A stretch of 64,000 nucleotides of DNA from Candidatus Eiseniibacteriota bacterium (GTDB taxonomy: Bacteria > Eisenbacteria > RBG-16-71-46 > CAIMUX01 > VGJL01). The stretch covers positions 256,001 through 320,000 of the forward strand of contig CAWBWI010000001.1 in the NCBI GenBank assembly GCA_963792585.1. Direction: 5' to 3'. This document shows positions 10,542-59,896 of this stretch, one piece after another. The notes under the pieces are model-generated. The model saw only the letters and a list, made by a program, of their open reading frames with translations, was not told the DNA's origin and searched no databases. Every line of letters starts with the position of its first letter. Position 1 is the first letter of the stretch. Position numbers and translations under genes: made by a program.

Positions 10542-10791
10542 TTTACCGACCCCTCCTCCCACGCTACACTCAGACCCGCCTGGACCTCCTTCGTGCGTGC
10601 CCGAGGTGTCCACCTCGAACGAGATAACCCAGCCAGGCGAGGACGAAGAATGCGCCGCATGTGGCCGAAGCGATTTGGGTTGCTGACCGGTCCCGAGAGG
10701 GCCGGAAGAGCCGTGCCTCACCTTGCCGACCTGACCCGCCATGAACGGCGTCCATCCGCCATATCCTTGTCCAGGTCATCTACCGTTAGAT
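10542..10791 (+). promoter_or_regulatory. Integron-like platform copy 1: Pc-like promoter (TTTACC-17-TACACT) plus leader plus attI-like core GTTAGAT (10785)
   Basis: Homologous to 54650-54899 and 59641-59896. All three keep the -35/-10 boxes and have GTT exactly 24 nt after ccatcYgcc, where homology stops. Confidence 0.7.
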
Positions 10792-10801
10792 TGGGTAGCC
10801 C

Positions 10802-11218
10802 ATGACCGCGATGAGCATGGGCCGAACCGCCTCCATAGTCCTTGGAGTCACGCTGGCTTTCATGCTCTGCCTGACGCAATCCGGCTGTGATGGGGAGAAG
10901 AGCCCAACTGGGGTGCGGGGCTTTTGCTGGATGGGCGTGGACACACTCTATGCGAGTGGCTTTGCCGTCACTGACACAACTGTCGTCCGCGCGGCCTTCG
11001 AAGCCTACATAGCCTTCGTTGACTCGACTGCTGCCGAGTTCCCTGGGGAATCAGATTGGACATACCTCGCCTCCCGTCCCTATTGGGTCTGGCGCGGACG
11101 AAGGTACTGGCAAGTCGACCACGAGGCCTACTCCCCTATTCTTGACATGAGGCTCTCGCGTCGAAAGACCTATGTTGATGAGAACGGAATGGTCGTGTGG
11201 CCGTTTCATTGCATTTGA
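10802..11218 (+). CDS. Cassette 1: putative lipoprotein
   Basis: Hydrophobic leader with lipobox-like QSGC. Starts 17 nt after the GTTAGAT core and is followed by an attC-like site. Confidence 0.65.
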   Translation: MTAMSMGRTASIVLGVTLAFMLCLTQSGCDGEKSPTGVRGFCWMGVDTLYASGFAVTDTTVVRAAFEAYIAFVDSTAAEFPGESDWTYLASRPYWVWRGRRYWQVDHEAYSPILDMRLSRRKTYVDENGMVVWPFHCI

Positions 11219-11234
11219 GGGTGTCCATGATGCT

Positions 11235-11368
11235 CCAATCTAGAAACCGTATTCACCTGACGCGCTGGCCCGTCACGGCCCTGGCAGAGAAGCATAGAAG
11301 GTCAAACCATCACCTCGGGCTGCGAGGGCCGTGCAGGCCTCGGGACACGGGTGATGGGAACGTTATGC
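11235..11368 (+). repeat. Degenerate attC-like site 1
   Basis: R''-like ccaatctaga, L'' attcacctg, internal ggccct/agggcc stem, L' gggtgatg, R' GTTATGC (11362-11368). Homologous to 12268-12400. Confidence 0.75.
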
Positions 11369-11386
11369 GCAAATGGAGAAGCGTTA

Positions 11387-12259
11387 ATGTCGCCTAATGA
11401 ATTCTCCCTGGTCTCCCTTGGGCCACTCACCCGACCCCTGACGAAGCTAATCGAGACGATCGGAGACGCCATAGGGGTCCTGTATGAGCCCACGCGGATT
11501 CGAAGGAAGGCAGAGGCTGAGGCCTCCGCCCTCATAATACAATCCCAAGCGGAAGCGGTAGCCGACTCGCTCGCACAGCGCGCCAATCGTCGCGTATGCC
11601 ATCAAGAGGAGAGACGCCAGACCAACCTTGAGAGCATTGTTGGAGTCGCCGCAACTAACCTCCCTGAGGTTGTATCAGACGATCCCGTTTCGCAAGACTG
11701 GGTCGCACACTTCATTGGTGCAGCTCAAGATGTCGGTGACGCGGAACTCCAGAGACTCTGGAGCAGAGTCCTTGCTGGCGAGGTGACGACACCAGGATCC
11801 TATTCGCGACGCACCATTGAGAGTCTGCGTATGGCAAGTCGGGATGACGGACGCCTCTTTGAGATTGCTGCGAACCATGCCACGAGACTTGCCGACCGCT
11901 CGGTCATCATAACAAACGCGACATGTCGAGAATATCTCCAAGGCGCTGGGCTATACGCGGCAGCATGCGACCATCTCATCGCCATCGGACTTCTTAGAGA
12001 TGGGCTAGTCTTTCCCCTAAAGAAGGACTCTCCTGTTCAGATTTCCTACTTCCTCAATGCGTGCGCAGTCGTTGCCGCCGCGGATGGGAAGAGCTGGAAT
12101 GCCAACATCGATTTCTACCACTTCACCGCGACTGGTGAGGAGATCTTGCGTCTGTGCCAAACGACATTTCAGCAGGGATACTGGGATGCGGTTATAGCAG
12201 CACTGCGGGCCAATGATGCACTGGTTGTAACCGTTATTGAGACTAGGACCTCCCAATGA
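11387..12259 (+). CDS. Cassette 2: DUF2806-like protein
   Basis: KLIETIGDAIGVLYEPTRIRRKAEAEA, RRQTNLESIV, DWVAHF..AQDV.D.ELQRLWSRVLAGEV..PGSYS pattern, recognised from family knowledge. Confidence 0.75.
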   Translation: MSPNEFSLVSLGPLTRPLTKLIETIGDAIGVLYEPTRIRRKAEAEASALIIQSQAEAVADSLAQRANRRVCHQEERRQTNLESIVGVAATNLPEVVSDDPVSQDWVAHFIGAAQDVGDAELQRLWSRVLAGEVTTPGSYSRRTIESLRMASRDDGRLFEIAANHATRLADRSVIITNATCREYLQGAGLYAAACDHLIAIGLLRDGLVFPLKKDSPVQISYFLNACAVVAAADGKSWNANIDFYHFTATGEEILRLCQTTFQQGYWDAVIAALRANDALVVTVIETRTSQ

Positions 12260-12267
12260 TAATAGGG

Positions 12268-12400
12268 GCGTATCAGTCTCGCATTCACTTGCCCGGCTGG
12301 TCCGTCACGGCCCCGGTAGGAGAACGCAAGAGGTTGAACGATCACCTCGGGCTGCTGGGGCCGCGGCGACGTCAGCTCGCAGATGATGCCAACGTTGGTC
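12268..12400 (+). repeat. Degenerate attC-like site 2
   Basis: gcattcacttgc ... gcagatgatgc L''/L' pair with a bulged base, R' GTTGGTC (12394-12400). Shares gtcacggccc and atcacctcgggctgc with site 1. Confidence 0.75.
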
Positions 12401-12416
12401 GGAACGGACGTGCTAC

Positions 12417-13193
12417 ATGAGGCGGAAGCTCTGGAGAGTTGGGAAGTTCGTGCTCGGTCTCTTGACGGCGGCCGTCGCGATAATTCAGATCGCGTCGTGG
12501 ATCGGCGCACCTCGCTCAAGTCTCGTAGCGGACGTCAGCTTTGCCCCGCTCACGCTCCCAGACGCCCTCGACAAGCAGATCAGGGGCTTTCGCGACCTAA
12601 CCAGTGATTCCGTTCTCGCCCGGGGGGTGACTCGCGAGTACCTGGACCCGAAACTGATTGAGCGATACGGTGCAGATTACGTAGCTCGGCTGACGGTTGC
12701 AGCGATCGCGCGCCAACTGTCGGACCGTCTCCCTTATGGACTCCCCGAGCCTTTCCGTGACTTCAGAGGAGTGTGGCGCGTGGCCGTGGAGAACCGAGGG
12801 CGACGCGCGGCGTCCGGCGTGCGCCTGCTTCTTCCGAACGCGATCTATGCTCGCATACGTCATGAAGACGGCACTGAGTCCGAGGGACCAACTTCCCCCC
12901 TGCTTTATCTCAACGACTTAGCTCCGAAGGAGATAATGGTTGTCGATGCCTGGACGGACATTGAACCAGGAGAATTCATTGCGAGATCCATCAGACTCAC
13001 GCACGACTCCGGACTTGGCAGAGTCCGCCTTTCGGTTCCAACCAGCGGGGCGTGGCACTGGCTCTCGGAAAACCCTGGAACAGCACTTTGGCTCGTCGCC
13101 AGCGTTTGCATGTTCCTCGTCTCTCTCTACTCTTTCTTTCGTACTGCAAGACCGAGCCAACCAACAGAGGCGAAGCATGCAGGAGCCGACTAG
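12417..13193 (+). CDS. Cassette 3: hypothetical protein with N- and C-terminal TM helices
   Basis: 258-aa ORF that fills the interval between attC-like sites 2 and 3; two hydrophobic segments. Confidence 0.65.
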   Translation: MRRKLWRVGKFVLGLLTAAVAIIQIASWIGAPRSSLVADVSFAPLTLPDALDKQIRGFRDLTSDSVLARGVTREYLDPKLIERYGADYVARLTVAAIARQLSDRLPYGLPEPFRDFRGVWRVAVENRGRRAASGVRLLLPNAIYARIRHEDGTESEGPTSPLLYLNDLAPKEIMVVDAWTDIEPGEFIARSIRLTHDSGLGRVRLSVPTSGAWHWLSENPGTALWLVASVCMFLVSLYSFFRTARPSQPTEAKHAGAD

Positions 13194-15211: not shown

Positions 15212-15343
15212 ATCGCGGTTCACTCACCGCATCGGTACATATCATCAGACAGCGGCCCGGCCGCAAAGCGGAGGGCGTTGTGGGTGTTGCGAAGGCAACC
15301 CTGAGGCGCGTTTTCGTGTTTTGCCCGCCGAATCGCAAGGCCC
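15212..15343 (+). repeat. Dispersed non-coding repeat family D, copy 1
   Basis: Matches 61444-61578. A 37-nt core gcaaagcggaRggcgttgtgggtgttgcgaaggcaac has one mismatch. Confidence 0.85.
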
Positions 15344-17028: not shown

Positions 17029-17526
17029 TCACGAGGGGCTTGATGGCTGCGTGCACCCTCCGGCCTTGGTCCTGCCGAGATGCGGCTGGAGGACTTGCTC
17101 CCACATTCTTGACTGCGTACTCCAGTCCACCTCGGCCACGATGCCTCGCAGGCTTCGCTCCGTGACGACATCGCGGCCTCCATGCACCTGGGGCATGAAC
17201 AGGATCGCCTCCTGGATGGATGGCGCGAGATCGAGTAGTGCCATGATCTGGGAGACCCGCGCCTTGCTAACGCCGCCGAGCCGGGCGATGTCCCCACATT
17301 CGCGGATGGCACCCTTTCGAATCATGCCATCGAAGTGGATCGCCAGCGCCATGAGGCGGGAGATGCGAGGGATGCGCCCCGGCTCGGCGGCCTTCGGCGG
17401 TTTGGGCGTCCCCGTGCGCATCCGTTTTCGACCACGGTTCCCACTCCGGAAGTGGACGTCGAACGTGACCGTCGGGCCCACGTGTGCGCCCGTGTGCGCG
17501 CCTGGGGCCACCTGTCGTGCCTTCAT
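17029..17526 (-). CDS. HTH-like hypothetical protein that accompanies DUF2924/serine recombinase modules
   Basis: GRIPRISRLMALAIHFD...IARLGGVSKARVSQIMALLDLAPSIQEAILF; translationally coupled to the recombinase. Confidence 0.75.
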   Translation of the reverse strand: MKARQVAPGAHTGAHVGPTVTFDVHFRSGNRGRKRMRTGTPKPPKAAEPGRIPRISRLMALAIHFDGMIRKGAIRECGDIARLGGVSKARVSQIMALLDLAPSIQEAILFMPQVHGGRDVVTERSLRGIVAEVDWSTQSRMWEQVLQPHLGRTKAGGCTQPSSPS

Positions 17527-19068
17527 CCCATCTCCTGCGCCAGGACCTTGATCCCGCCCGGCCGGAACGTCACGGAGACCGTCTCGCCCGCCCGGTCATA
17601 CGCCACGCGTTCCACGAGGAGGTGGACGACGCGGGCCTGTTCCCTCGGAGAGAGGGTGTCCCAGATCGGGTCGAAGCTCGCGAGTGCCGTCACCAGGTCC
17701 GCTTCGTCAAGCCGCTCGCGTTCCAGCGCGACTTGGTGGGTGCGAATCTCCGCGAGCCGCTGCTCTGCGGCGGTGGTCAGTTCCTGCAGTTCGGCCAGCC
17801 GGGCCGTGGACGTTGACGCACGCTTGGTCAATCCCACAAGTCGCTTCACATCAGTGGCGTGCCGTCTCAATTCCGATTCAATGCTGCGGCGATCCGAGGT
17901 CAGACGGTCAGCTTGCTCTTTGGTGGCGGCCTTCGCTTGTTTCAGCACCTCGGCCTGGAGCGTCGCGTCGGTACCGATCGCCCGAACGCGGTCGACCACG
18001 AATTTCTCGATCTCCCCCGCTGGAAGTGACTTCGTCGGGCAGGTGTCCCATCCCTGCTTCTGCGCCCGGCTGCAGACGTAGTACCGGTACCGGCGCTCGC
18101 CCCGCTGTGAGTAGGTGTGCGTCATCGCGGCATCGCAGGGTGCGCAGCGGAGGAGCCCCCGGAGCAGCGCCCCGTGCCGGTTTCGGGTCGCCCGTCCGCC
18201 CGATCGGCCGTTGTGTCGCAGGAGCCTCTGCACACGGCCCCAGACGGCCTCATCCACGATCGCCGCGTGCTCGCCGGGATAGACCGTGCCTCGGTGGTCG
18301 ACCTTCCCGACGTAGGTCGGACTCGTCAGCAGGTGGAAGAGGGTGTTCTTCTCGAACGGGGTGCCGCCTCGCGCCTTGCCCTTCTTGGTGACCCACGCCT
18401 TCGTCATCCAATGGCGACGATTCGCCTCCCGGAGGGTCTCCGTAAGAGACTCCTTCTCGAGGTACAGATCGAAGATCCCCCGGACCCGCTTGGCCTCGGC
18501 CTCGTTGACGACGATTCGTCCGCCCTTTGGGTCGACGTCGTAGCCGAGGACCGGGACGCCACCGACCCACTTGCCCTTCCGGCGAGCGGCGGACATCTTG
18601 TCCCGCGTTCTTTCCGCGATGATCTCGCGCTCGAACTGGGCGAAGGAGAGGAGCACGTTCTGCATCAGCCGGCCAGTGGAGGTCGACGTGTTGAACTGCT
18701 GGGTCACGCTCGACGAAAGAGACCCGGTGCTTGTCCAGGACCTCCATGATCCGGGCGAAATCGAGGAGCGACCGGGACAGCCGGTCGACCTTGTAGACAA
18801 CGACGCAGTCGATGCGCCCCGCCTCGACGTCGGCCATCAGCCGCCTCAGCGCGGGCCGGTCCATGTTCCCGCCCGTGAACCCACCGTCGTCGTAGGCGTC
18901 GGGCAGGCAGACCCAGCCTTCAAGCTTCTGGGATGCGATGTACGCTTCAGCCGCCTCCCGCTGGGCATCGAGGGAGTTGAACTCCTGGTCGAGCCCCTCC
19001 TCTGTGGATTTGCGGGTGTACACGGCGCAGCGGGTCGTGGTGGGCTTGGGGTCAGCGCGGCGGATCAT
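17523..19068 (-). CDS. Large serine recombinase (resolvase + recombinase + Zn-ribbon), one indel near 18710
   Basis: [63 protein letters not shown] and YRYYVC across ORFs 18250-19068 and 17523-18800. Confidence 0.92.
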
Positions 19069-19544
19069 CGGGTGGCTCCCTTCGCCAGCCCGAAGAACAA
19101 CATCCCGTTCCAGTGACTGCCTGTCACCGCCTTAGCCACCGCCGTCAGCGACCGGTAGACCGCGCCCTCGTACTCGAAGCCATCGTCCAGCACGGTGACC
19201 GAGATCGTGCGACCCCGGTACTCGCGGGTCAGAACGGCACCGGGCATGGGCAGGCGGTGGTCGTGCGTCGGTTTGAAGGTCCCGACCACGGTGCGCCCCA
19301 CGCCAGCCCTGGGGGCGACCAGGCGCAGGTCGGACTCGTTCGCCAGTTCCTCCGCCCGGCGCAGTGCCCGCTCGCTCAGCCCGCCGTACTCGTTCGCCTG
19401 GAGCCTCCACGCGATGCGCTTGCGTAGGAAGTCCTTGTGGCGGGAGGTCGTCGGCTCACCGAATGCCGCTGCATATGCCCCCCGTAGCTCCACGACGGTC
19501 AAGTCCCGAAGTGCCTCGATCTGCTTGGCGATGGATTCCTTCAT
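19065..19544 (-). CDS. DUF2924 domain protein
   Basis: [62 protein letters not shown]. Confidence 0.9.
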
Positions 19545-19855
19545 CGTGCAGCCTCCTGGGGCGCGGATTCTCCGCCCGTTAACCCCTCGTTACACAAGGG
19601 CATCGGTCCGCCGGAACAGTCCAGAGGATTCTCGGTGAACGGGCGGGTCCTAAGGCGCTGGTAGCCTGCTGCCAGGATCGCGGCCGTCTCGGACAACCGT
19701 TGCTCGGGCGACATTTCCTCGGGGTCGTCAAGGAAGCTCGTGCATCGAGGTCTGCCACCACGACACGACACACCTGGACCACGCAGATTCTCCGCATGCG
19801 TCTCCGCCTGTGGCGGGGGACCCTCATCTTGTGTGCACGAGTCATCGCTAGCCAT
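19541..19855 (-). CDS. Small hypothetical protein preceding DUF2924 (start uncertain)
   Basis: DPEEMSPEQRLSETAAILAAGYQRLR segment; stop overlaps the DUF2924 start. Confidence 0.5.
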   Translation of the reverse strand: MASDDSCTQDEGPPPQAETHAENLRGPGVSCRGGRPRCTSFLDDPEEMSPEQRLSETAAILAAGYQRLRTRPFTENPLDCSGGPMPLCNEGLTGGESAPQEAAR

Positions 19856-19910
19856 CTTGTATGTCCTCCAGAGGCGGTGCGCCGCCTACAGGAGGAACCT
19901 AGGTGACGAG

Positions 19911-19926
19911 AAAGAATCGATTCTTT
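19911..19926. promoter_or_regulatory. Perfect 16-bp palindrome AAAGAATCGATTCTTT, candidate operator
   Basis: AT-rich palindrome upstream of the integrase operon. A related site GAATGAATCGTTTCTTC lies at 21488-21504. Confidence 0.55.
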
Positions 19927-20058
19927 TGTGGTAGGGGCGACCCGCGTGTTGGCCCCACGCGAGGGGGCGGCAGGGGGGACGGAGCGCCTCTCCAGTCGGT
20001 CGTCGTCGCCCTGGATCGGGGGAAGCAAAGGGCTATGTCGTTGGCCCAGACATCCAGA

Positions 20059-21378
20059 TTATCCCCAGAGCTTCGTGAGCGGGGGCAGCAATAGCTCCTT
20101 GCGCGTTGTCCTGAAGGTCGCCCGCATTTCGCTCAGAGACCGATATCTCCACTTCGGATGCTTGGCAACCCAGCGCTTGGCGACCTCTTCCCACGGGAAA
20201 GGCGCACCATCTTCCTCGATCTCTTCCCATGACTTTCCTACGAACTTGTCACGGTATTCCTCGACGAAGTCAAAGAGGCGGAGCCTTCGTTCCTCTACCA
20301 ACCTGAGTTGCCGGCTGCTGCTCATCCGTCGTGCGCTGTGGAAAGCGTTCAGCAGGGTCTCGTCCGTAATCCACGGCTCGAACTCCATGGTCACTATCAT
20401 CCGGCGATGATGGGGCGAGTGCAGGGCCGCGAAGTTCAGGTCAATGGGCAGTACCAAGGGGATTCTACCCTCAGTGAGAAAGAGAAAGGACTCCGTCTCC
20501 GTCCAGTGGTACGACGCAGCAATGTGTGACGCGACCCGCTGCATCTCCCCAAAGACGGAGCCCTCAATCACCCGCGCCGGCGACCACTGGAATACGTAAG
20601 ACGCGCGAAGACTCTTCGGAAGGTCATTGCGGCTGCGCACGGGGATTCTCACGGGCCTCCGCCGAGATCCTCCCACACTCCGGGCAGAGGAGAAGATGCC
20701 ATCAGGAGGCTGAGGCAGTTGGACGTACACGCCTCGCTCGGCGAATCCCGCTGCGAGTCGATTCAAATTCCTAAGGCGGCGCAAGTTGCCACCCCATTCA
20801 ACCCGGATCTCTGTTCCCTTTCCCCTCGGCCAAGCGACGTCCCCCTGGTTCCAGAAGTACGATGTGTGTTCCAGCAGGGGGACTCGATTCTTGACGAACC
20901 AATCGAGGGGAAAGTACCTCGGTGCGACTTGGAGCAAAAGGTGTTCGGCCTGATCGTGCGTGGGCACGTGACCACCGAACAGGGAGGTTCGCAGATCCTG
21001 GACTTCAGGCTCGCGAGATGCGAATCGGCCGAGTTCTCGTGAGAAGATCTTGGCCCGAAGCTTTTCAGGCGGAGTCAGCTTGGGCTGGTTCTTGGTGCCG
21101 CTCTTCTGGCCGACTCTCCGCCCCGGCATTGTCGTGCGAGCACTCCGTGCACGGCTGACGAGCATCCTGAATTGTGCCTTGCCTGAGTTCATCAAGTAGT
21201 CCCGGATTTCGCTATCCAACTCGTTCTCTTCGAGAGTCCTACTGTCACTCCTGGCGGCGCCAAGCTCGGCGACTAGCCGCCTTTCTACCGCCTCCCTGTT
21301 CGTGGGATAGCCGACTTCCATCCGATGCTCCTCCAGGATTGAAGTATCTGGATCCCGCATGCGGCCGTTCGATGACAC
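20059..21378 (-). CDS. Hypothetical protein, possible regulator (C-terminal HTH-like helices)
   Basis: 439-aa ORF divergent from the xis/primase operon; C-terminal WEEVAKRW...SLSEMRATF. Confidence 0.6.
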   Translation of the reverse strand: MSSNGRMRDPDTSILEEHRMEVGYPTNREAVERRLVAELGAARSDSRTLEENELDSEIRDYLMNSGKAQFRMLVSRARSARTTMPGRRVGQKSGTKNQPKLTPPEKLRAKIFSRELGRFASREPEVQDLRTSLFGGHVPTHDQAEHLLLQVAPRYFPLDWFVKNRVPLLEHTSYFWNQGDVAWPRGKGTEIRVEWGGNLRRLRNLNRLAAGFAERGVYVQLPQPPDGIFSSARSVGGSRRRPVRIPVRSRNDLPKSLRASYVFQWSPARVIEGSVFGEMQRVASHIAASYHWTETESFLFLTEGRIPLVLPIDLNFAALHSPHHRRMIVTMEFEPWITDETLLNAFHSARRMSSSRQLRLVEERRLRLFDFVEEYRDKFVGKSWEEIEEDGAPFPWEEVAKRWVAKHPKWRYRSLSEMRATFRTTRKELLLPPLTKLWG

Positions 21379-21562
21379 TGGAAACGACTATAGACCATGC
21401 ACCCGTCATTCGTCCGTCGGTTCCCTGTCGCCCGCCGCGGTCCGGAACGGGGTGCTCCGTGAACGGTGGTCCTTGACCGCCTGACACGAATGAATCGTTT
21501 CTTCCACGTCAGATAGGGTTCGCCATGTGGGGTCGAAGAACGCCCTGCATAGGAGAACGACC

Positions 21563-21799
21563 ATGACGACAGATCAACAGCTTCTAAGACCGGCCGATCT
21601 TGCTCCGCGATTGGGAGTATCCGTGAGCCGCGTCTACCAATTGATTTCCGCTGGCGTGTTGCCCCACGTGCGTGTCGCGGGCGCCATTCGAATCCCGCTG
21701 GTCGCGTGGGAACGGTGGCTCGCCAAGCAAGGAGATCGCGCGCTGCTGGCCGCCGAAGGCCGGCAAGGCCCGATGCAGGTGGAGGACAGCGAATCATGA
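21563..21799 (+). CDS. Excisionase-like HTH DNA-binding protein
   Basis: LLRPADLAPRLGVSVSRVYQLISAGVLPHVRVAGAIRIP; AGGAG RBS. Confidence 0.85.
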   Translation: MTTDQQLLRPADLAPRLGVSVSRVYQLISAGVLPHVRVAGAIRIPLVAWERWLAKQGDRALLAAEGRQGPMQVEDSES

Positions 21800-24700
21800 G
21801 TGTCCCCCGGGTCGTCGCGGATCCGAGTAGTCCGCGCGCGCGAAAGGGCAAGGGCAAGGGCAAGACGAAACGTCAACGGAAACGCCGGACTGCATCCGCA
21901 GCGGTTGCGGAAGGACGTGCGGACGCCGCAAACGATGTCCGGCCGGATGATGTTGCGGGAGCACAAGGCATCCCATCTGGGGACCAAGCGGTGAACCCTC
22001 CGGATGCACCGAATGCGGGCACAGCCGCGGACAGTGGAACTGCCCAGGAAGCAGTCAGCGCACAGGTCCTTCTGACCAATCACCAAAAGCTCATCGACGA
22101 TTCCGCGATCTCCCCCGAGGTAGCCGCAGAGCGAGGGTATCGATCGGTCACCTCGCGTGCCGAGCTTGGGCGGCTCGGCTTCGGAGACAAGCAGTGCCGT
22201 GTTCCAGCGCTGCTCCTGCCGATCTACGGCGTCAACGGAGAGATCGTCTTGTACCAGGCCAGGCCCGATATGCCTCGGGTCATGGATCGTGGGAAGGCCA
22301 TCAAGTACGAAACGCCACGTGGATCTCGGATGGTTCTTGATGTGCCGCCGAGGGTTCGCCCCATGCTCGCAGATCCAAAGCAACCGCTGTTCGTAACAGA
22401 GGGGATTCGGAAGGCCGATTCCGCGGCAAGCATCGGATTGGCCTGTGTTGCGCTGCTTGGAGTCTGGAACTGGCGGGGCACGAACGATGCGGGCGGAAAG
22501 GTGGCCCTGCCGGACTGGGAGTCGATAGCGCTCAATGATCGGGATGTGTACATCGTGTTCGACTCGGATGCGGTGACAAAACCAGAGGTCCAGTCGGCGC
22601 TCCGTCGCTTTGCACGATTTCTGATGAATCGCCAAGCCAAGGTCAAGATCGTGAGTCTGCCGTCTGAGCCAAACGGGACAAAGGTTGGCCTCGATGATTA
22701 CCTCGCTGCCGGCCATGGGATCGACGACCTCGTGCAGCACGCGAAGCTGGAACCCATCGGCAAGGAGACACGGGAAGATGCGGATTCTCTCTACGAGGAG
22801 TCCGAAGGCGGCCTGGTGTGGAACCGAATGACGTCAAATGGGCCGGTCTCCGTCAGGCTGACGAACTTCACGGCCAAGATTCTTGCGGATATCGGGCGAG
22901 ACGACGGGGTGGAGACGACTCGCATGTTTGAGGTTGAGGCGCGTCGTGGACCCCGAGTAACTCGATTCAGCGTGCCCGCCAGCCGCTTCTCGGCGATGAA
23001 CTGGCCAACGGAGCATCTGGGGGCAGAGGCTGTGATTTTCCCCGGCCAGAGTCTGCGAGACCACACCCGAGTCGCGATCCAGATCCTTTCGGGAGATGTC
23101 CCTCGGCGCACGGTCTTCACACACACCGGTTGGCGGACCGTTGACGATCGGCTCGTCTACCTCCACGGTGGAGGGGCAATTGGGCAAAATGGGCAAGTCC
23201 CTGGGGTAGAGGTCGAGCTTCCGGCATCGCTGCGGGGGATGGTCCTGCCTGACTCACCGGTTGGAGAAGGGCTCAAGGCGGCAGTGGTTGCTTCGTTGGA
23301 TCTCCTGCAGCTTGCTCCTGATCGCATATCCGTTCCCCTCATGGCGGCGACCTACCGAAGCGTTCTAGGCGGGACCGATTCGTCGCTCCATCTTTCCGGA
23401 CCGACGGGGGCCGGGAAGTCGGAGTTCGCTGCGCGGTGCATGCAGCACTTCGGGGCCGGGTTCAACCGAACGACCTTGCCGGGCTCATGGTCGTCGACGG
23501 GGAACTCCCTTGAAGTGTTGGCCTTCCTCGCGAAGGACGCGCTCTTGGTCGTTGACGACTTTTGCCCGACCGGCTCATCGACAGACGTCCAACGGACGCA
23601 CCGGGAAGCGGACCGCCTGCTCCGCGCCCAAGGCAACAACTCTGGCCGAGGTCGGCTCTCCTCGGACGGGACCCTCCGGGGCTCGCGGCCACCCCGAGGG
23701 ACGATAATCAGTACCGGGGAGGATGTTCCTCGGGGGCAGTCCCTGCGAGCACGCATGCTAATGATCGGAGTCGGTCCCAACGACATCGACTTCGATGTGC
23801 TGACGGGGGCGCAGAAGGCCGGCGAGAAAGGCATCTATGCTGCTGCGATGGCTGGCTACCTGAAGTGGCTAGCACCACGCTACGAGGCGATCCGGCGGTC
23901 CATGCCGGATGAGATCAATGCGATCCGTGCCGCAGCCTCCGTGAACGGCCAGCATCGCCGTGTGCCGAGTATTGTCGCCGACCTGTATTTCGGATTTCGC
24001 ACATTTGTGACGTTCGCTGTGGAAGTCGGCGCAATCTCAACCACGGTGGAGGATGCGCTTCTTGATCGGGCCTGGACTGCGTTTCTCGAAGTCGCACACG
24101 AACAGGCCGAGCACCAAGCCTCCGCAGAACCAACTGCCCGGTTCCTTGAGCTACTCCGGTCAGCGCTGGCAGCGGGCGCCGCCCACGTGGCGAGCTTCGA
24201 CGGTGCAGCGCCAGAGGATCCAGGGGCATGGGGCTGGCGGGAGCGCACCGTTGGCGCGGGGGCCAACGAGCGAGCAGAGTGGCACGCCCAAGGTCGGCGA
24301 GTCGGCTGGATCGACGATGTGGGTGTCTACCTCGACCGCGACTCCGCGTACCAGGCATGTCAAGCCGCGGCCGGTGGGGGAGAGGGATTGCCGATCTCGA
24401 TGGCTACCCTTACCAAGCGACTCCATGAACGAGGGCTGCTCGCGTCGACAGACGGGACACGGAAATCGCTCCTCGTCCGCCGCGTCATTGAGAATTCTCG
24501 GAGGAACGTCCTCCACATCGCCCGAGAGGCTGTCTACCCCTCTCACGAGTTGCCCAACTTGCCCACGACGATGGAAGCCCCCGCAAATGCTGAAGATGCG
24601 ACGGGCAACTCGTGTGGCGAGGGTCGCCCACCCGCCCACGGACTTGCCCAGGAACTTGCCCACGCTCGGCCCGCCGTGGGCAACTCGGTGGGCAATGGGG

Positions 24701-24924: not shown

Positions 24925-25039
24925 GGACAATCCGATCTCGGCCGGCCGGACGTGTGCGGCGATGGCTGAGGCTGCGGTGGGACACGCGACAACCCCAGGC
25001 GATCGCTCGCCGGGGCTGTCCGTGCCTTCGTGGCGTGAT

Positions 25040-49534: not shown

Positions 49535-49665
49535 ACGCCCTTCCGGTGAACGCCGATGCGATCGGGACATGCCGAGCGTGGGTGCCGGAGCGCGGGGGTC
49601 TCGGGGGACGGAGCCAGAAACTACCCCAAGGTCGGCGAGGATGGAGACGCCGGGCACGGCCAAGG
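49535..49665 (+). repeat. Repeat family L, partial copy 3 (3' half)
   Basis: ccggtgaacgccgatgcgatcgggacatgccgagcgtgggtgccggagcgcggggg...ctaccccaagg matches 46695-46790 and 56381-56470. Confidence 0.85.
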
Positions 49666-49870
49666 AGCCTGGCTGCTGATAAACAGCCAGCCCCAGCCCG
49701 ACCGAAAAGCGCCCTCAGAGACCGGCGCAACCGCAGTCGCATCGACAGCCATCGCCTCGTCAGCGACGCTCGTTCTGCTCGTTCCTGCTCCCGCCCTTGT
49801 CCTTACGAGGCCTGCCTGCTACCCTTGATTCCGGCTAATCCCCTGCGATCTCGTCCCGAGGGAGGCTTAT

Positions 49871-51010
49871 GTGAAGACGGCCGCAGTGTTCCTCGCGCAT
49901 TTTCTGATTCCTGCTTATGCCATTCTTGCCGTGCCTGCAGAAGCGACGACCTACCTCGTCCGCCCAGATGGCTCCGGCGATTTCCCCACGATTCAGGCAG
50001 CGTTGGATGCCGCTGTCGGCGGCGACGAAATCCTGCTCGCCAGCGGAACGTTCCAGGGGGCCGGAAACGGGAACCTGACATTCCAGGGCAAGTCACTCGT
50101 CGTGCGATCAGAAAGTGGTGACCCCGAGAGCTGCGTGATCGATTGTGGGTATCGCACCAGGGGATTCCAATTCGTCTCGGGGGAGACCAGAGAAGCCCGC
50201 GTCGAATCGGTCAGGGTCACGCATGGGCAGCCCAACCGAGGCGGCGCGATCTACTGCGTGGGCAGCAGCCCCAGTCTGGTTGATTGCGTCTTCGACGAGT
50301 CCCATGCTGATCTCGGGGGCGGTGTCTATGTTGACCACGGCTCGCCATTGATCCGCGGGTGCAGGTTCTACTGGTGCGGGCATGTCTATGGTGCTGAGAC
50401 GGCCGGCGGTGCGATCTACTCATGGGCCAGCCAAGTCGACATCGAGGACTGCTACTTCGACCAGAACGGGGCTCCGGAAGGTGGAGGCATCTGGGCATGG
50501 GGGTCGCTCCTTCACGTGATCGACTCCACATTCCGGGTCAATTTCGGCGACGGTCCGGCGCTGTGGTGTGAGGCGGGAACGACTGTAATTATGGCGGGCT
50601 GCACCGTGTTCTACAATCTCGGCGGTGGGGAAGACGGACAGATTCACCTTGAGGGCGGCTCCAATCTCCACGCGGAGCGTACGTTGATCGCCTTCTGTAT
50701 CGAGAGCGAGATGGCGATCTTCTGTGATGGCTCATCGACAGCGAACCTAAGCTGCTGCTGCGTCTACGGCAATCCCGGGGGTGACTGGGTCGGTTGTCTC
50801 GCAGGGCAGGAGGCAGTGAGTGACAACCTCTGGGTCGATCCGATCATTTGCAGCCTCGAGGACCTGGATCCCCACCTGCGCAGCGACTCGCCGTGCGCAG
50901 CCGAGAACAACTCGGCGTGTGGACAAATAGGCTCACTGGGGGTTGGTTGCGATGCCCCTGTGCCAGTTCGGGTGACGACTTGGGGGCGGATCAAGGCGGC
51001 GTACCGATGA
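49871..51010 (+). CDS. Secreted right-handed beta-helix protein with TWG tail
   Basis: VRPDGSGDFPTIQAA, GGAIY repeats, VDP..C...DSPC, VTTWGRIKAAYR*. Confidence 0.85.
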   Translation: MKTAAVFLAHFLIPAYAILAVPAEATTYLVRPDGSGDFPTIQAALDAAVGGDEILLASGTFQGAGNGNLTFQGKSLVVRSESGDPESCVIDCGYRTRGFQFVSGETREARVESVRVTHGQPNRGGAIYCVGSSPSLVDCVFDESHADLGGGVYVDHGSPLIRGCRFYWCGHVYGAETAGGAIYSWASQVDIEDCYFDQNGAPEGGGIWAWGSLLHVIDSTFRVNFGDGPALWCEAGTTVIMAGCTVFYNLGGGEDGQIHLEGGSNLHAERTLIAFCIESEMAIFCDGSSTANLSCCCVYGNPGGDWVGCLAGQEAVSDNLWVDPIICSLEDLDPHLRSDSPCAAENNSACGQIGSLGVGCDAPVPVRVTTWGRIKAAYR

Positions 51011-52376
51011 GACTCGCCCCAGTAGGACTGTCCATCGTCGGGGTCGCCGCCATACTCGCCTGCGTTCTCTCGTCGGGAGCCGTGGTCGCCCGAACCTGGC
51101 ACGTCCCAGGGGATGCTCCCAACATCCAGGCGGGGATCAACATGGCTGTCGGTGGGGACACTGTTCGGGTGGGGGAAGGCACATACTCTGGTGAGGGCAA
51201 CAGAGACATCCGTTTCGACCGCAATATCGTGCTGATGTCTGATGGCGGGCCGGAACGCACCATCATCTCCTGCGGCGGGTCCGAAAGCGACGAACATCGA
51301 GGTTTTCTCTGCCTGAACGGTTCCACTGGTGGAACCATTGACGGCTTCACAGTGATTGGCGGCCATGTCGGAGACGGGGGAGCTGCAATCAGGTTCATTT
51401 TTGGATCGGTCTTCGTCACCAATTGCGCTCTGCGGGACAACGAAGGAGGAACGCAAGGCGGCGCGATCTTCGTGTACGTGAGGACATCCCCGACGATTGA
51501 CCACTGCACGATCACGGGGAACACAGCCGATGCGGGCCCAGCAGTTCTATGTCTCGCGAACTCTGCTCCGACGATATCTGACTGCCTGATCGTGAACAAC
51601 CATGCCCGCTACGAAACGGGAGGGATTTCTTGCAGGGGAGCTTCGCCAACGATTTCTCGTTGCGTGATCGCAGGCAACGTGGGACCGCAAAGTGGCGGAA
51701 TCATGAGCAGGAACCATTCAAACTTGACTGTGAACGATTGCCTCATCACCGGAAACCGGGCCCAGTCGGGGGAGGGGCAGTAGCGATAGTGAACTCTGCA
51801 TCGGCGACATTCACCGACTGCACCATTACTGCCAACTATGTCGACAGCCGAGGTGGTGGCCTCTTCCTCTGGGAAGGTGCCGCGGTTACGCTGACTCGGA
51901 CCATCCTATGGGGCAACTGCGGGGGCGCGGGCGGGAACGAGTTGCACTTCAACGGGGCGACCTCCATGAGCGCCGCCTTCGACTGCTGCGATGTCGACTC
52001 CTCCGGCATTGACGGTCTTGGGGATGTTCACTATCTCGAGGATGACATCTTTCTTGACCCCCAGTTCTGCGGTCCAGAATCCTGTCAGAATGCGCCGACC
52101 GCCGAGGGCGACTTCACCCTAGATTCGACTTCCCCTTGTCTCCCTGAGTCTAGCCCCTGCGCCCAATTGATCGGGGCGCGGGGTCAAGGTTGCGGTGGGA
52201 TTCCGACCGGTGCGTGTTGCTTCGTCGATGGATCCTGCCTCGTCCTTGGGCGGTCAGCGTGCGGGGACCAGCACGGGACCTATCAAGGAGACGGCACGAC
52301 GTGCGATCCGAATCCCTGTGAGCCTACGCCGATCCAACCGACCACCTGGGGGCGGATCAAGGCGGGGTACCGCTGA
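51007..52376 (+). CDS. Secreted right-handed beta-helix protein with GACC spacer and TWG tail (indel in G-run near 51770)
   Basis: ORF 50848-51783 (from ATG 51007) plus 51630-52376; PTTWGRIKAGYR*. Confidence 0.8.
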
Positions 52377-52421
52377 GGGCGTGAGAGCGCATCCTTGGCA
52401 GATCGAATGGAGGGATAGGCC

Positions 52422-54596: not shown

Positions 54597-54649
54597 AGCA
54601 GCGTCGTCAAGTCGGCCGTGAATGATGGACGGACCGGGCGACGCACCGC

Positions 54650-54899
54650 TTTACGCTCTCCGCTTCTCGCGCTACACTCGACACCGCCTGGACCGACTCC
54701 GTGCGTGCCCGAGGTGTCCGCCTCGAACGAGATAACCCGACCAGGCGAGGACGAAGAATGAGCCGCATGTGGCAGAACCGATTTGTGCTGCGAGCCGGGC
54801 CCGAGAGGGCCGGTCGAGCCATGCCTCCTCTTGCCGACCTGGCCTGCCGAGAATGCCGCCCATCTGCCCTATCACGGTTCTGGCTACTCAACGTTGGAT
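54650..54899 (+). promoter_or_regulatory. Integron-like platform copy 2 (TTTACG-17-TACACT ... GTTGGAT at 54893)
   Basis: Colinear with 10542-10791; the -10-to-GTT distance is the same (215 nt). Confidence 0.7.
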
Positions 54900-55289
54900 A
54901 CTTTGATCGCAGATGCTCGGACTCGGGCACTGGGAACCCACTACGGAACTTTGTGCTCCTTACCATCTTGATCACACTCGCTGGACTTGGTCTTGCCAGA
55001 GCACAGACCGCAGGGTAACTCCTTCCTGTGGTTGACTGTCACTGGGGGAGTTACCCCTTCCGCTTCTGTGACACAAGAACAGATACATCACCCTTGCGAA
55101 ACCTGTCATGGACCCAACTATCCCCCGCACGTATACTCATTGCGCGCTTCTCTCTGTCCTCGTTTGAAATCTCATTGTCGGTAGATCGAAGGAAGGCTCG
55201 GCCGTGAGAGTCGTCTCATCTGCCATCAGTCACGCACTACTCGGACCAATCTCTGTCTCGAACTCCCCTTCCATTGATGGAGGTGCCTT

Positions 55290-56246
55290 ATGAAGGCTCC
55301 GATGGGTTTCGTATTGGTTCTCTCTCTGCTCTCAATCGGCTCGCTCGCTAGCGCGCAGAGCACTGTATTCTTCGAGGAGGAGTTCAGTGGACCGAACCTG
55401 GACTCCGCCGTCTGGCGCACGGAGGTCGTCACCAGCGGGGTGCGGTGGTGCGATCCCTACTATGGCGGGACCTACTGGGGCCAAGGCTACTGGGTACCGG
55501 AAGGAACGCCGTGCAGCGGTACTGCGGCGCACTCGCCCTACGGTCACGTTGTCCTATCGGACGGATTGGTGCGGCTGACCTCGGGTGATTATGCCTTTCC
55601 CTATCTCGTGTTGCGGCTCCCAGGGACCGTCAGTCTATTCCCGGCGACGGGGGATTGGTCCTTCGAGGCAAGGCTCCGCTGTGAGCAGGAGTCTTCCTGG
55701 GGAACCTTCCTCACCGTGATGCAGACGGCGAGCACGGAGCCGGTGGGCAACACCCCGGTCACGTGGGCGGATGATGTCGTGATGCAACTCAGCGCGACAG
55801 GCGGAAGTTGGGATATCTGGGCCGCGCTGGACGGATCCGTCGGTCAGGTCGCGTTGGTCTCCTCGAATGTGTACGAATTCCACGTCTTCAGAATCGAGTG
55901 CCGCGGGAACTCATACACCATCAGCATCGATGGCGGCGTCGTCTACGGTCCGATCACGAGCACCCTCAGACCGACGGCCCTGTTCCTGGGCAACCCTGTT
56001 CTGTGCTCTTGGGGCTGCTTCGCGTGGCAGGAATACAGCGTTGACTACATCCGGGTCGAGCTACCGGGACCGCCGACCGGCGCGTGCTGCTTCCCTTCGG
56101 GCGGTTGCCTGGTGGGGACAGAGGCGGACTGCGGTGCGTCCGGCGGGAACTACATGGGCGACGGCACCTCCTGCGATCCCAGTCCATGCGAATCGACGCC
56201 GGTAAAGCGCAAGACTTTGGGTGAGGTGAAGTCGCTGTTCCGGTAA
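55290..56246 (+). CDS. Secreted beta-sandwich protein (paralog of 48638-49468) with GACC spacer and variant tail
   Basis: FFEEEFSGPNLDSAVWRTE, TGACCF..., TPVKRKTLGEVKSLFR*. Confidence 0.78.
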   Translation: MKAPMGFVLVLSLLSIGSLASAQSTVFFEEEFSGPNLDSAVWRTEVVTSGVRWCDPYYGGTYWGQGYWVPEGTPCSGTAAHSPYGHVVLSDGLVRLTSGDYAFPYLVLRLPGTVSLFPATGDWSFEARLRCEQESSWGTFLTVMQTASTEPVGNTPVTWADDVVMQLSATGGSWDIWAALDGSVGQVALVSSNVYEFHVFRIECRGNSYTISIDGGVVYGPITSTLRPTALFLGNPVLCSWGCFAWQEYSVDYIRVELPGPPTGACCFPSGGCLVGTEADCGASGGNYMGDGTSCDPSPCESTPVKRKTLGEVKSLFR

Positions 56247-56357
56247 TGCACGATCCAGATGGCCGCGGGGAAACTCGGCCGTAGAAGTACGCGACTCGCG
56301 AACCTGGAGTGGCTTGAGTGGCCAACGCTCTCAGCATGAGCAATGCCCGCTGCGGAC

Positions 56358-56597
56358 GGTTCACGAAACTGCGGTCTCCTGGTGAACGCTAGTGCGGGCA
56401 GTGGGTGCCGGGCGTGGGTGCCGGAGCGCGGGGGTTGCGGGGGACGGATCCAGGGATCACCCCAAGGGGGCCAAGGTAGAAACATCGGACACAGCCAAGA
56501 GGCGACGCCACCGACGACCGGACGGTCACTATCCCGACCGATCTGGGATCTTCGAAACGCCCGAAACTGTAACCGCGCTCATGGGACGACTCTGTGA
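56358..56597 (+). repeat. Repeat family L, partial copy 4 (interrupted by IS256)
   Basis: Matches 8555-8793 and becomes near-identical from 56445. Confidence 0.9.
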
Positions 56598-57882
56598 GGT
56601 AACGTCACGTGTTTTGTGTCACGAGCAGAAACGGGGTAGCCGCCCCTTCTCCCTTATTCGCGTAGTTGAAAACGGCATACAGGATCCGTTCGATGCTCGT
56701 CCGGTCGCTGAATGCCCCCATCGGACGGGTCCGACGCCGCACCTCCCGGAATCGACGCTCGATCGCATTTGTCGTCCGGCTCATCCGCTGCCACTCCGGC
56801 TGCTTCAGGTCGTAGTGGTTCAGCAGCTCATCGAGGTCCTTCATCAGGCATCGCACGGCCGCGTGGTAGAGCCCATCCCACCGGTCCCCGAAGCGGATGG
56901 CTGCCTGGATTGCCCGCATCCGGTTCTTCGCCCCGTAGATCTTCCTCAGATCCCGCTTCACCGCTTCCCAGTCTCCGACCCGTACCTTGTCCAGGATGTT
57001 GCGGACCTTATGCGCCCAGCAGCGCTGCACGGGGATCCGGGGATAGACGACCCGCAGAGCGGCTCGCAGCCCCCCACACCCGTCGATCGTGATCAGCTCC
57101 ACTCCCTTGCCCGTCAGCCCTCGCCGATAGAGATCGTTCAGAAGGCCTTCCCATGAGTCCTGGCCCTCAGAGCTCGCCAGCAGGAAGTCGATGATCTCCT
57201 TCCTCCCGTCCGGCTGGATCCCCAAAGCCACGAGAACCGGGCGTTTGCTCGCTCCCACGCCCGTCTTGCGCGAGAGCACCACTCCGTCGAACTGAAGCAC
57301 CCGGTACCGGTTCTTCAATGGCCGGCGATGAAACGCCTCGACCTCCGCGTCGAGAACTCGTGAGACCCGACTGACTGTCGAGGCGCTGACCCGCTCGCCC
57401 AGGATTGGCAGCAACGCCTCCGCGACCTTCCGTGTGGACAGGCCCAGAACAAAGCAGGCCAGAATGGCTCGATCGACATCTCCGCTGCGCCGCGCATAGG
57501 CTTGGGCCACAGAGATCGGACTGAAATGCCGTGTCCGGGGGATCGAAACCTCGATGTCACCCAAGGCCGTCAGCAAGTGCCTGCGATACGATCCGTTCCG
57601 GCGATCCTGCTCTCCACGACCGAGGGAGTCCTCGAGCCAAGAGCGTACCCGGTGATCCATCTCCTCCTCGAGACAACGCCGGAGACCCTCCCGCCCCGCC
57701 TCCTTCAGGTCTCCCCAGCCCTCGGGGTGGTGGTTCATCAGCCTCTTGATCACTCGACCCGCCTGACGCACACTCTTGACCGTCGCAAACGGCGACATGG
57801 GGTAACTCCTTTCTGTGGTCCCTCTAGACCCACATGGGAGCTACCCCTTCTTTCTGCCTGACACAAGACCTGATACATCACC
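56598..57882 (-). mobile_element. IS256-family insertion sequence with 9-bp TSD ACTCTGTGA
   Basis: TSD at 56589-56597 and 57883-57891; imperfect TIRs GGT...TTGTGTCA..GCAGAAA..GGGGTAGC; empty site visible at 8785-8793. Confidence 0.95.
56605..57798 (-). CDS. IS256-family (Mutator-type) transposase
   Basis: RRNGSYRR, IPRTR, GLSTRKV, FDG, ITIDG..GL, QRCWAHKVRN, RTTNAIERRFREVRRRTR. Confidence 0.95.
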   Translation of the reverse strand: MSPFATVKSVRQAGRVIKRLMNHHPEGWGDLKEAGREGLRRCLEEEMDHRVRSWLEDSLGRGEQDRRNGSYRRHLLTALGDIEVSIPRTRHFSPISVAQAYARRSGDVDRAILACFVLGLSTRKVAEALLPILGERVSASTVSRVSRVLDAEVEAFHRRPLKNRYRVLQFDGVVLSRKTGVGASKRPVLVALGIQPDGRKEIIDFLLASSEGQDSWEGLLNDLYRRGLTGKGVELITIDGCGGLRAALRVVYPRIPVQRCWAHKVRNILDKVRVGDWEAVKRDLRKIYGAKNRMRAIQAAIRFGDRWDGLYHAAVRCLMKDLDELLNHYDLKQPEWQRMSRTTNAIERRFREVRRRTRPMGAFSDRTSIERILYAVFNYANKGEGAATPFLLVTQNT

Positions 57883-58054
57883 ACTCTGTGAAATCCACTT
57901 GTCGCTTATCTCCGGTCAATCTACAATACTCGCGCGATCGTGAACCTCGCTTCTGCGATCACAGGCGGTGGCGGGGTGGGAGCTTGGATGACCCGGCCGC
58001 GCACAAGTCATTATCGCCCGCGGCTTGGTGAGTTCGTTGCAGGGGAGGGTGACC

Positions 58055-59573
58055 ATGAAGAGCCGCGAGCACTTCCGTTCCATTCACGTCCCGCGTCGGA
58101 CTGACGATCGCCTTCGGCCTCCGGCCTCGAGCAGACTCTCCACCCGAACCCTCCCGCCGCTGCTTGCGCTTTCATTGCTCCTTGGTCTAGCTGGTCAAGC
58201 CGGGGCGGTCACCTGGGGCGAGGATGTACGCCTCACGGATACCCTCGGGCAGTCCGCATGTCCGGTCGCTGCGCCAGATCCCTACGGTTATACCCACGTC
58301 GTGTGGCAGGACGACCGGGATGGCAACCTGGAGATCTACTACAAGCGCTGGGATGGATCATCGTGGGGGGCCGGACGAGCGCTTGACCGTACACGCGTCC
58401 ACATCCGAACTTCCTTGGTTGGCGGCGGACGCACTTGGCCGGGTCCACGTCGTCTGGGACGACGCTCGAAACGGCACCCATCAGGTCTACTACAAGTGCT
58501 TTGACGGCGAGTGGAGTGCGGATGTGGCCATCACCGACAGCGCCGACGGGCCGTGGCAGGCCTGTGTGGCGACGGATCCTCTCTCCAATGTTCATGTGAT
58601 CTGGGTGGAAAGCACAACGACAGTCAACACGAACGTCTTCTATAGGTGCCGCGACGCGAATGGATGGGGCCCCGTCACCCGTCTCTCCACGGGTTCGAAC
58701 CATGCGTTCCGTGAGCGGATTGCCTGCGATATCCGAGGATGGGTCCACGTCGTGTGGCAGGACACTCGCGACGGAAACCTGGAGATCTATCACAGAGTCT
58801 GGAGAGACGGTGCCTGGGGGCCCGAGGAGCGGCTGACAGAGGATCCAATGGACTCGCAACGCCCCGCGATCGCCACGGATCTGACAGGGCGGATCCATGT
58901 CGTGTGGGCAGATGACTGGACCAGCGACTCCGAGATGTACTACAAGGCTTGGGATGAGGAGACTGGATGGTCCGCGGCGAGCCAGCTGACGGAATGCGCG
59001 GGAGCCTCTGGCTACCCCAGCATCACGACTGACGGAGAGAACCGTGTGCATGTGGTCTGGACGGACGCGAGAGACGGCAATTCAGAGATCTACTACAAGA
59101 GTGGTGACGGAGGGATCTGGACCCCCGACGAACGCCTGACCCATGACTCTGCGGGGTCCGGACGTCCCTCGTTGATTGTCGATAGTCGCGGCCTTCTCCA
59201 TGTGTTTTGGTATGACCAACGTGACGGAAACGAGGAGATCTACGACAAGCAGGGGATCTCTCCTTCGGATGTGGCGCAGCAGGAAACACTGCCCGGAGAA
59301 GTCCGCGTTGACTGTGCGCCGAACCCCTTCCGGGGGCAGGTTCGACTCACCTTTGAGGGACCTCAGGCCGATCGAATCCAACTCCTGATCCAAGATGCAG
59401 GTGGGCGAAGGATCCGAAGGTTCTCTGAAGATGGCCCCTCCCAAACGCGCTACATCAACTGGGATGGTCGGGACGATTCGGGGATCCCGGTTGGATCCGG
59501 CGTCTACTTCTGGCATGTCATAGATTCTTCTGGCGATGGAGGCCGATCCGGTTCCTTCGTCAAGATTAGATAG
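58055..59573 (+). CDS. Duplicate of 8957-10474 (extra G in G-run at 58365-58370 shifts the frame)
   Basis: Near-identical nucleotide sequence; G6 here versus G5 at 9267-9271. Confidence 0.85.
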
Positions 59574-59640
59574 TATCGTCTCCAGACTGTCTCTCAGACC
59601 ACGGGATCGGAGCCCCTCCGGACTCCGACCTACGTATCGC

Positions 59641-59896
59641 TTTACCGACCCTTCCTCCCGCGCTACACTCGAACCCGCCTGGCCCGACTCCGTGCATGCC
59701 CGAGGTGTCCACCTCGAACGAGATAACCCAGCCAGGCAAGGAACGATGATGCGCCGCATGTGGCCGAACCGAGCTGGGCTCCAAGACGATTCCGTCAGGG
59801 GCGGGGGAGCCTTCTCTTGCCTCCACAACCTGACACTGTCCAATCGTGAACGCCATCCATCTGCCATGTCCCGCTTCTTACCTGTCGTTGTTGGCC
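59641..59896 (+). promoter_or_regulatory. Integron-like platform copy 3 (TTTACC-17-TACACT ... GTTGGCC at 59890)
   Basis: 5' half near-identical to copy 1, 3' half diverged. GTT is again 24 nt after ccatctgcc. Confidence 0.62.

Follow-up and report, generated by a model that had tools for sequence, protein, structure and literature searches.

The element copies of the window

The window analysed here, that is, the whole stretch of 64,000 nucleotides at C1:256001-320000, belongs to a Candidatus Eiseniibacteriota bacterium whose genome (5.4 Mb, around 65% GC) is 84% complete. It contains three dispersed copies of an integron-like element of about 250 bp, here considered as platforms in which a cassette promoter (Pc) and a leader open reading frame (ORF) end in an attI-type recombination site, lacking an adjoining integrase gene (intI). 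The copies of the genome are called c1 to c8 (c1-c3 being window copies 1-3), C1, C3, C4 and C6 are contigs of the same genome, and G004 is a genome of a sister genus. The main features of the window related to the element are the following:

8782-10541, plus strand: segment of a gene with BNR and FlgD-Ig domains, duplicated upstream of copies 1 and 3 (the other copy, at 57880-59640, is 97% identical)
10542-10791, plus strand: platform copy 1, with -35 box at 10542-47, -10 box at 10565-70, 5' stem-loop at 10577-10639, Shine-Dalgarno (SD) sequence at 10640-43, ATG at 10650 and crossover G at 10785 in the attI-like end
10650-10805, plus strand: leader ORF of copy 1, 51 amino acids (aa), with GTT in frame and an ATGA overlap with the start of cassette gene 1
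10802-11218, plus strand: cassette 1 gene, 138 aa, no Pfam match
11221-11397, plus strand: bridge ORF 1 through attC 1, from GTG 11221 or ATG 11227, starting 3-9 nt past the stop of gene 1 and ending 8 nt inside gene 2
11238-11368, plus strand: attC 1 of the C6 family, decayed (84% identity to the nearest C6 attC; R'' ATCTAGA without AAC; folding energy, dG, -24 versus -46)
11387-12259, plus strand: cassette 2 gene (DUF2806), whose start is the first ATG past GTT
12256-12420, plus strand: bridge ORF 2, 54 aa, with ATGA overlaps with the gene 2 stop and the gene 3 start
12270-12400, plus strand: attC 2, decayed (78%)
12417-13193, plus strand: cassette 3 gene, 258 aa
13188-13301, plus strand: remnant of attC 3 (71%), right end lost
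54650-54899, plus strand: platform copy 2, with ATG at 54758 and G at 54893; of the copies, its attI end is the nearest to the intI-linked attI of G004
54893-55018, plus strand: stub following copy 2, open in frame, in which a signal-peptide-like stretch was read by inspection
55013-55094, strand not assigned: remnant of the end of an IS256 (Mutator) insertion sequence (IS), 76-79% identical to the ends of IS copies
59641-59896, plus strand: platform copy 3, with ATG at 59749 and G at 59890; it has the most decayed attI end and no attC downstream

The three copies had been described in a sequence-only reading of this DNA, and their presence and internal organisation were corroborated. They align at 71-82%, and the interior alignments reach z values of 19-24 versus dinucleotide shuffles, so that the likeness is not due to chance. 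Each copy begins with a -35 box (TTTACC, TTTACG and TTTACC at 10542, 54650 and 59641) followed after 17 nt by TACACT (10565, 54673 and 59664), and contains a CGCCTGG/CCAGGC stem and a CGAGGT/RCCTCG hairpin. The crossover point G^TT lies 24 nt past CCATCYGCC in the three cases (10785, 54893 and 59890). Recombination sites of integrons follow the consensus GTTRRRY and RYYYAAC; copy 3 has an extra in-frame GTT at 59887, and its GTTGGCC is one position off GTTRRRY.

It had also been claimed that the three copies directly follow the stop codon of a gene with a FlgD-Ig domain. These genes are real (Pfam PF13860), but their stop codons are located 53-67 nt before the copies and the cases of c1 and c3 are not independent. 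Copies 1 and 3 are part of one duplicated segment (97% over 1761 nt), and the association is therefore weaker than three independent cases would make it. A gene with a FlgD-like tail (by inspection) also precedes c4, and no such gene was found before c5-c8 or the platform of C6.

As regards the DNA downstream, three cassettes follow copy 1, the stub after copy 2 probably represents the 5' end of a cassette that was cut by IS256, and copy 3 is followed by a split Schlafen/AlbA_2 gene without attC.

Orphan platforms and the complete integron on C6

Ten tyrosine-recombinase matches were found in the genome, one of which corresponds to an intact integron integrase (IntI; C6:619076-620020, TIGR02249, 432 bits). 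The tyrosine recombinase at window 30377-31069 was considered as an IntI and rejected, its score being far under the cut-off. On C6, a single strand carries in order intI, a MazF-type toxin-antitoxin (TA) pair, a platform of 254 nt ending in GTTAGGC and an attC array with more than 40 attC matches on the same strand and sites of 131/135 bp (C6:620978-658198), which corresponds to an integron of the inverted-orientation type. IntI is present in 30 of the 41 genomes searched, and the nearest of the 30 loci compared is that of G004 (IntI 72% identical), where intI, TA (by eye) and platform are found in the same order. The TA pair that separates intI from the Pc-attI platform in both genomes is of MazF type here (L001:2557-3122) and VapBC-like by eye in G004 (L030); this interposed position indicates that the platform can be separated from intI.

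The pattern TTTACS-17-TAnnnT occurs nine times in the 5.4 Mb, and five of these occurrences are c1, c2, c3, c8 and the C6 platform. The distance from the start of the boxes to GTT is 246-258 nt in c1-c3, c8, C6 and G004. When boxes and GTT were excluded from the comparison and scores were expressed against shuffles, similarity to the C6 platform was observed for c1 (z 4.4), c2 (z 5.2) and c3 (z 3.0), and similarity to the G004 platform for c1 (z 4.4) and c2 (z 4.6); none of 500 shuffles scored as high for c1 or c2 against either platform. The G004 platform and the orphan copies also have in common a GAGG-N7-ATGCGCC start and a CCATCT-20-ACTCAACGTT end. The G004 platform is present in a single copy in its genome, so no multiplication was seen in that relative. 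A homologue of the element adjoining an intI had been anticipated, and both C6 and G004 provide one. The shared -35/17/-10 layout, the similar length up to G^TT and the attI-end motifs common to C6 and G004 support the identification of the repeats as orphan, integrase-less Pc+attI platforms, whose promoter activity is predicted from these boxes.

BLAST and profile searches raised the number of copies to eight in the whole genome. Five are outside the window:

c4, C1:1941.8 kb, minus strand: fusion with an attC right half
c5, C1:1883.0 kb, minus strand: about 120 nt kept; its start codon opens a cassette ORF of 493 aa
c6, C3:655.0 kb: last bases before GTT lost
c7, C4:260.7 kb, minus strand: about 95 nt kept
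c8, C3:1028.9 kb: runs to GTT

The homology ends at GTT in c1, c2, c3 and c8. None of the eight copies has an adjoining intI, as a complete integron would, the only intI being that of C6, and no remnants of intI or TA were detected near any of them. A profile built from 34 C6 attCs (cut-off E<1e-4) gave 16 matches outside C6, distributed as 3 after c1, 10 after c4, 2 after c5 and 1 after c8; thus, cassettes are headed by four of the eight copies, and each of the four attC clusters outside C6 begins with a copy of the element. This result, together with the homology to two intI-linked platforms and the lack of intI/TA remnants near the copies, supports the proposal that Pc+attI was uncoupled from intI. 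Taking at least two attCs with no intI nearby as an attC cluster without integron integrases (CALIN), the arrays of c1 (three sites), c4 (a half site plus nine) and c5 (two) belong to this class, whereas c8, with one site, resembles a single attC lacking an integrase (SALIN). The 3' half of the element was itself tried as a decayed attC and discarded, since it did not score above shuffles in c1, c2, c3, c8 or C6; only c4 contains a real half attC.

The state of these cassettes differs from one copy to another. The R'/R'' match of the first cassette is 8/8 in c8, 9/9 in C6 and 8/10 in c1, where, as had been proposed, the match with the R'' at 11235-11244 can be read from the sequence. The attC of c8 is 94% identical to C6 attCs (the nearest-neighbour median within C6 is 95%) and keeps an intact fold, and the c8 platform is not alignable to that of C6. 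From the perfect R'/R'', the fresh attC and this distant platform, we infer that the c8 cassette was recently captured by an IntI encoded elsewhere. Identity is 69-88% in the remaining 14 full-length satellite attCs, whose hairpins are weaker (dG from -20 to -32 versus about -45 kcal/mol), and it falls with distance from the copy: 84, 78 and 71% after c1, and likewise in the two sites of c5. Apart from attC and a C-terminal domain, no cassettes common to the satellite arrays and C6 were found. Capture in trans at orphan copies is plausible for c8, which is outside the window and is the only one with an intact cassette; the window copies seem to be no longer in use for capture, the attCs of c1 being decayed and c2 and c3 having none.

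The same data may be explained if the copies were relics of several complete integrons or acquired islands that lost intI, loaded by their own integrases and never in trans, of which only promoter and leader are left. The orphans are about equally far from the C6 platform and that of G004, which suggests old lineages; most satellite attCs are decayed, the 5' half of the element is better preserved than the attI end, and the leader ATG of c5 is fused straight to a cassette ORF. Besides, loss of intI is among the origins of CALINs listed in the available text of PMC4889954. However, this would need eight separate clean losses, intI and TA remnants are missing near the copies, whose upstream flanks, except for c1/c3 and some gene domains in common, have no relation to one another, and the c8 cassette is as fresh as those of the active array, so that such an origin is considered unlikely.

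With regard to the spread of the platforms, most copies are located in lower-GC mosaic islands which have other modules in common. Upstream of the platforms, c1 and c3 are around 97% identical; the value drops to 82-90% over the promoter and 5' leader and to 56-72% over the 150 nt that precede GTT. Moreover, c7 resembles a c2/c4 mosaic. Both observations suggest that homologous exchange took place within the conserved 5' half, and speak against an IntI crossover at GTT. The platforms would then have spread with the islands, their downstream parts being swapped by this exchange. Movement of the platform as an attI-terminated cassette, through attI x attI recombination by IntI as with the delta-attI2-238 cassettes of class 2 integrons, has a precedent in a 244-bp attI2 region that takes the place of attC and is recombined by IntI1 (PMC12901181, available text); each copy sits just past the stop of a gene, and the window copies are direct repeats. 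Nevertheless, a crossover at GTT should leave high identity right up to the G, and c1/c3, the sole traceable duplication, shows the opposite profile; this route is thus regarded as very improbable.

In contigs from four bioreactor metagenome runs, the 5' half occurs in several variants whose upstream flanks differ, with a sharp boundary at 54640-54649, which indicates that the multi-copy state is probably not confined to one population but common to related ones, although the contigs cannot assign copies to genomes. Those aligned to copy 2 at 80% likeness stop short of GTT, and two element-to-attC joints in runs X1 and X3, with short sides and unread middles, are a hint at most. Searches of metagenome and GTDB contigs with exact patterns yielded no matches, and BLAST of copy 2 in 40 relatives returned two weak matches of 37-42 nt. 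In 151 genomes, a pattern derived from copy 2 and the G004 attI had these two as its only exact matches, with one-mismatch matches at control level; being built from both sequences, the pattern informs only about rarity.

The sharp 5' boundary next to several unrelated flanks in the four runs, as well as a hairpin whose predicted structure is conserved (paired in 86% of cells), could also suit a miniature inverted-repeat transposable element (MITE), a mobile promoter or a structured non-coding RNA, to which GTT and cassettes would be incidental. This is largely refuted: neither the homology to intI-linked attI regions nor the start of 4/4 attC clusters at copies would be explained, and the check proposed for a MITE revealed no terminal inverted repeats (best 6-7 of 12) and no target duplication. 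An Rfam scan of the window gave 0 matches, element folding z values ranged from -1.5 to +0.8, and covariation in the hairpin amounted to one pair changed on both sides, not above shuffles.

Taking all this into account, the explanation favoured here, with a probability of roughly 0.7, is that the three repeats are integrase-less integron platforms with a likely promoter, a leader ORF and an attI-type end, which probably captured cassettes by means of an IntI encoded elsewhere and now likely act mainly as expression heads of ageing arrays, for which a ribosome relay is proposed. The insertion of cassettes at the orphan sites, the latest at c8, would have been carried out in trans by an IntI, for which the intact C6 enzyme is the simplest candidate. 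Several results count against this explanation. The promoter boxes have 8/12 consensus bases and were not among the promoter-scan listings, and no consistent L box was recognised by eye in the aligned attI ends, in which the R box is present. The comparisons of c8 with C6 (z 0.5) and of c3 with G004 (z 1.6) are not significant, and a profile from four copies missed the C6 platform at E<=50. Contrary to the prediction of a GTT end in all additional copies, c4-c7 (4/8 copies) are products of deletion or fusion that lack a native one, and no attC of the C6 family was found downstream of c2, c3, c6 and c7 (4/8 copies). The nine attCs of c4 show no age gradient from proximal to distal, and copy 1 may be frozen, the window attCs being decayed (71-84%). 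Finally, at 84% completeness of the assembly, a further intI may have been missed.

The leader ORF and the GTT frame of the array

The element had been taken as non-coding, and this part of the description has to be corrected: a conserved AGGA-N6-ATG, located 135-141 nt before the G in the full copies, opens a leader ORF that runs through GTT. In c1, c2, c3, c8, C6 and G004 the GTT is an in-frame codon of the leader despite the differences in length. As in ORF-11-like leaders, SD and start are within attI and the ORF passes over the crossover to the start of the cassette. The leader ends in an ATGA on the next gene in c1, c4, c6 and C6, in TAG-GTG in c8 and in a TGA 2 nt before ATG in G004, and it is fused in frame in c5. 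A conserved leader peptide was rejected, the 34 changes between c1 and c2 being spread 13/10/11 over the codon positions.

In the window, the chain is unbroken from the leader through to cassette 3. Of the 38 attC sites scored in the C6 array, 36 are open in the GTT frame, compared with 1 and 3 in the other two frames; because the attCs are related copies, this openness has to be counted as one observation. The placement of starts and stops constitutes stronger evidence, since they are located in cassette-specific DNA. The cassettes scored were 43, of which 36 are distinct and 34 have an ORF of at least 100 aa. The first in-frame stop overlaps the start of the next gene as RTGA in 10 of the 34 (2/34 and 1/34 in the other frames), nine more are in-frame fusions and in six the stop is within 12 nt. 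At the other side, among the 24 distinct cassettes in which 115-200 nt separate the end of the gene from the next G, 21 have a start in the GTT frame at -10 to +20 nt of the preceding stop (4/24 and 3/24 in the other frames; P 1e-6), and 19 of those 21 bridge ORFs are open up to GTT. Satellite attCs without indels keep the frame open in 10/10 cases (expected 7.2, P 0.035).

Nine unrelated arrays had such a start in 1/14 cases, the array of genome G063 showed no clear frame bias, and the relay was not clearly seen at five single related attCs. The G063 locus (L159, L164) is an inverted integron with runs of cassettes of ~310 bp, seemingly without ORFs, and mixed attC lengths.

These data are consistent with a relay of ribosomes. 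The RNA would start around 6-7 nt past TACACT, and ribosomes would load at AGGA-N6-ATG, pass through attI and either continue into the first cassette gene or re-initiate there; re-initiation on the short ORF through each attC would then allow them to reach the next gene. Such a chain would survive the shuffling of cassettes, because every crossover is a G^TT in one frame. Several observations argue the other way: 9/34 cassettes present no downstream coupling, three of the five satellite attCs with indels, excluded from the count above, are closed, the 38 attCs are one related family, so that 36/38 are not independent events, and frame 2 is a weak control, being mostly closed by GTTAG.

A broader and more tentative possibility, to which we give less than even odds, is a distributed frame-locked integron, in which one integrase would serve the main array and dispersed Pc-leader-attI docks, each attI and attC would double as a translated bridge in the GTT frame, and retired docks would keep the relay after the decay of attC. 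If this were true, retired docks would turn captured cassettes into stable operons.

Some cassette genes have signal-peptide-like N-termini (C6 626631 and 642287; window 54893-55018) without a stop between GTT and the gene, and for this reason the leader or bridge peptide may be fused to their products.

Island context and comparison with known systems

The islands contain other repeats and modules. A second dispersed repeat of ~450 bp, with internal palindromes, is found upstream of secreted-protein genes (window 8242-8690, 46394-46809, 49545-49704 and 56316-56597), with at least seven more copies on C1 and C4. A third one (window 15212-15299 and 61429-61603) has TTGACA-like-17-TAGAAA boxes and a conserved leader of ~130 nt, and four more copies are located on C1 and C4. 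The satellite-like module of window 17192-31069, which includes a DUF3854/DUF927 primase-like gene, a D12 methylase, a terminase gpA ATPase and a short tyrosine recombinase, is duplicated at 81-84% near C1:1919-1933 kb. A C-terminal motif of TxTWGxIKxxYR type is present in many island and C6 cassette genes (window 48244-48349, 50962-51011, 52272-52377, 56142-56246 and 62364-62413), which suggests a single pool of secreted proteins as the source of both cassettes and island genes. Defence-like cargo (window 36080-40696 and 59846-61280) comprises an MmeI-type restriction-modification gene, TIR and SIR2 domains and the split Schlafen/AlbA_2 gene. A Cas3-like gene is located upstream of c6 (L015:1324-3978), and past the c8 cassette, at C3:1031-1034 kb (L017:7188-9858), there are a split ATPase/nuclease-like gene and a helicase-like gene, which resemble a pair of Gabija type.

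Compared with the platform of sedentary chromosomal integrons of the inverted-integrase type (Cury et al. 2016, PMC4889954, available text), the copies are alike in the upstream promoter-like boxes, the G^TT and, in c8 and less fully in c1, the matching R'' that closes the first cassette, whereas they differ in that intI is not nearby and eight copies are present in one genome. In the complete versions described here (C6 and G004), the TA pair splits intI from the platform, so that Pc-attI and intI do not overlap. The attC clusters far from intI are shared with CALINs and SALINs (PMC4889954; Loot et al., 10.1101/2022.09.11.507474, in the parts available), and mobilisation of CALINs in trans has already been proposed in the accessible parts of 10.1101/2025.06.18.660453 and PMC9668308. 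In contrast to these, the clusters studied here retain a homologous Pc-leader-attI head and are not attG insertions at random sites. As far as their available text goes, Cury et al. (PMC4889954) assume that a CALIN that splits off loses Pc, and IntegronFinder, in its accessible description, matches attI/Pc for classes 1-3 only. The cassettes of delta-attI type (PMC12901181, same limits) are alike in an attI region of ~240 bp right after a gene stop; they lie within the arrays of mobile integrons, in contrast to the present copies, which stand at the head of arrays in dispersed islands and whose c1/c3 breakpoint lies away from GTT. A literature search, thin on subscription papers, found no description of a genome with multiplied Pc+attI heads, nor of a frame lock extending over a whole array.

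CALINs are more numerous than complete integrons, and their origin and expression are still debated questions; in this genome, every CALIN has its own homologous promoter-attI head, invisible to standard tools. Regarding translation, ORF-11, ORF-17 and ORF-18 of attI1 and short ORFs in attC have been described (review PMC8876359, parts available). The present leader is similar to these in that it runs over the crossover, takes its stop from the cassette and has a peptide sequence of no importance. It differs in its length, 45-48 codons up to the G versus 11 codons of ORF-11, and in the use of the frame of the GTT codon, whereas ORF-11, according to the same partial source, usually stops at a TAG in core positions 3-5. 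Bridging ORFs are found here at most attCs of the large array, and such cases are called anecdotal in the accessible text of PMC11511950. The frame lock offers a testable answer to how long arrays escape the polar silencing that attC hairpins and untranslated spacers cause, and provides a design rule for building cassette arrays synthetically.

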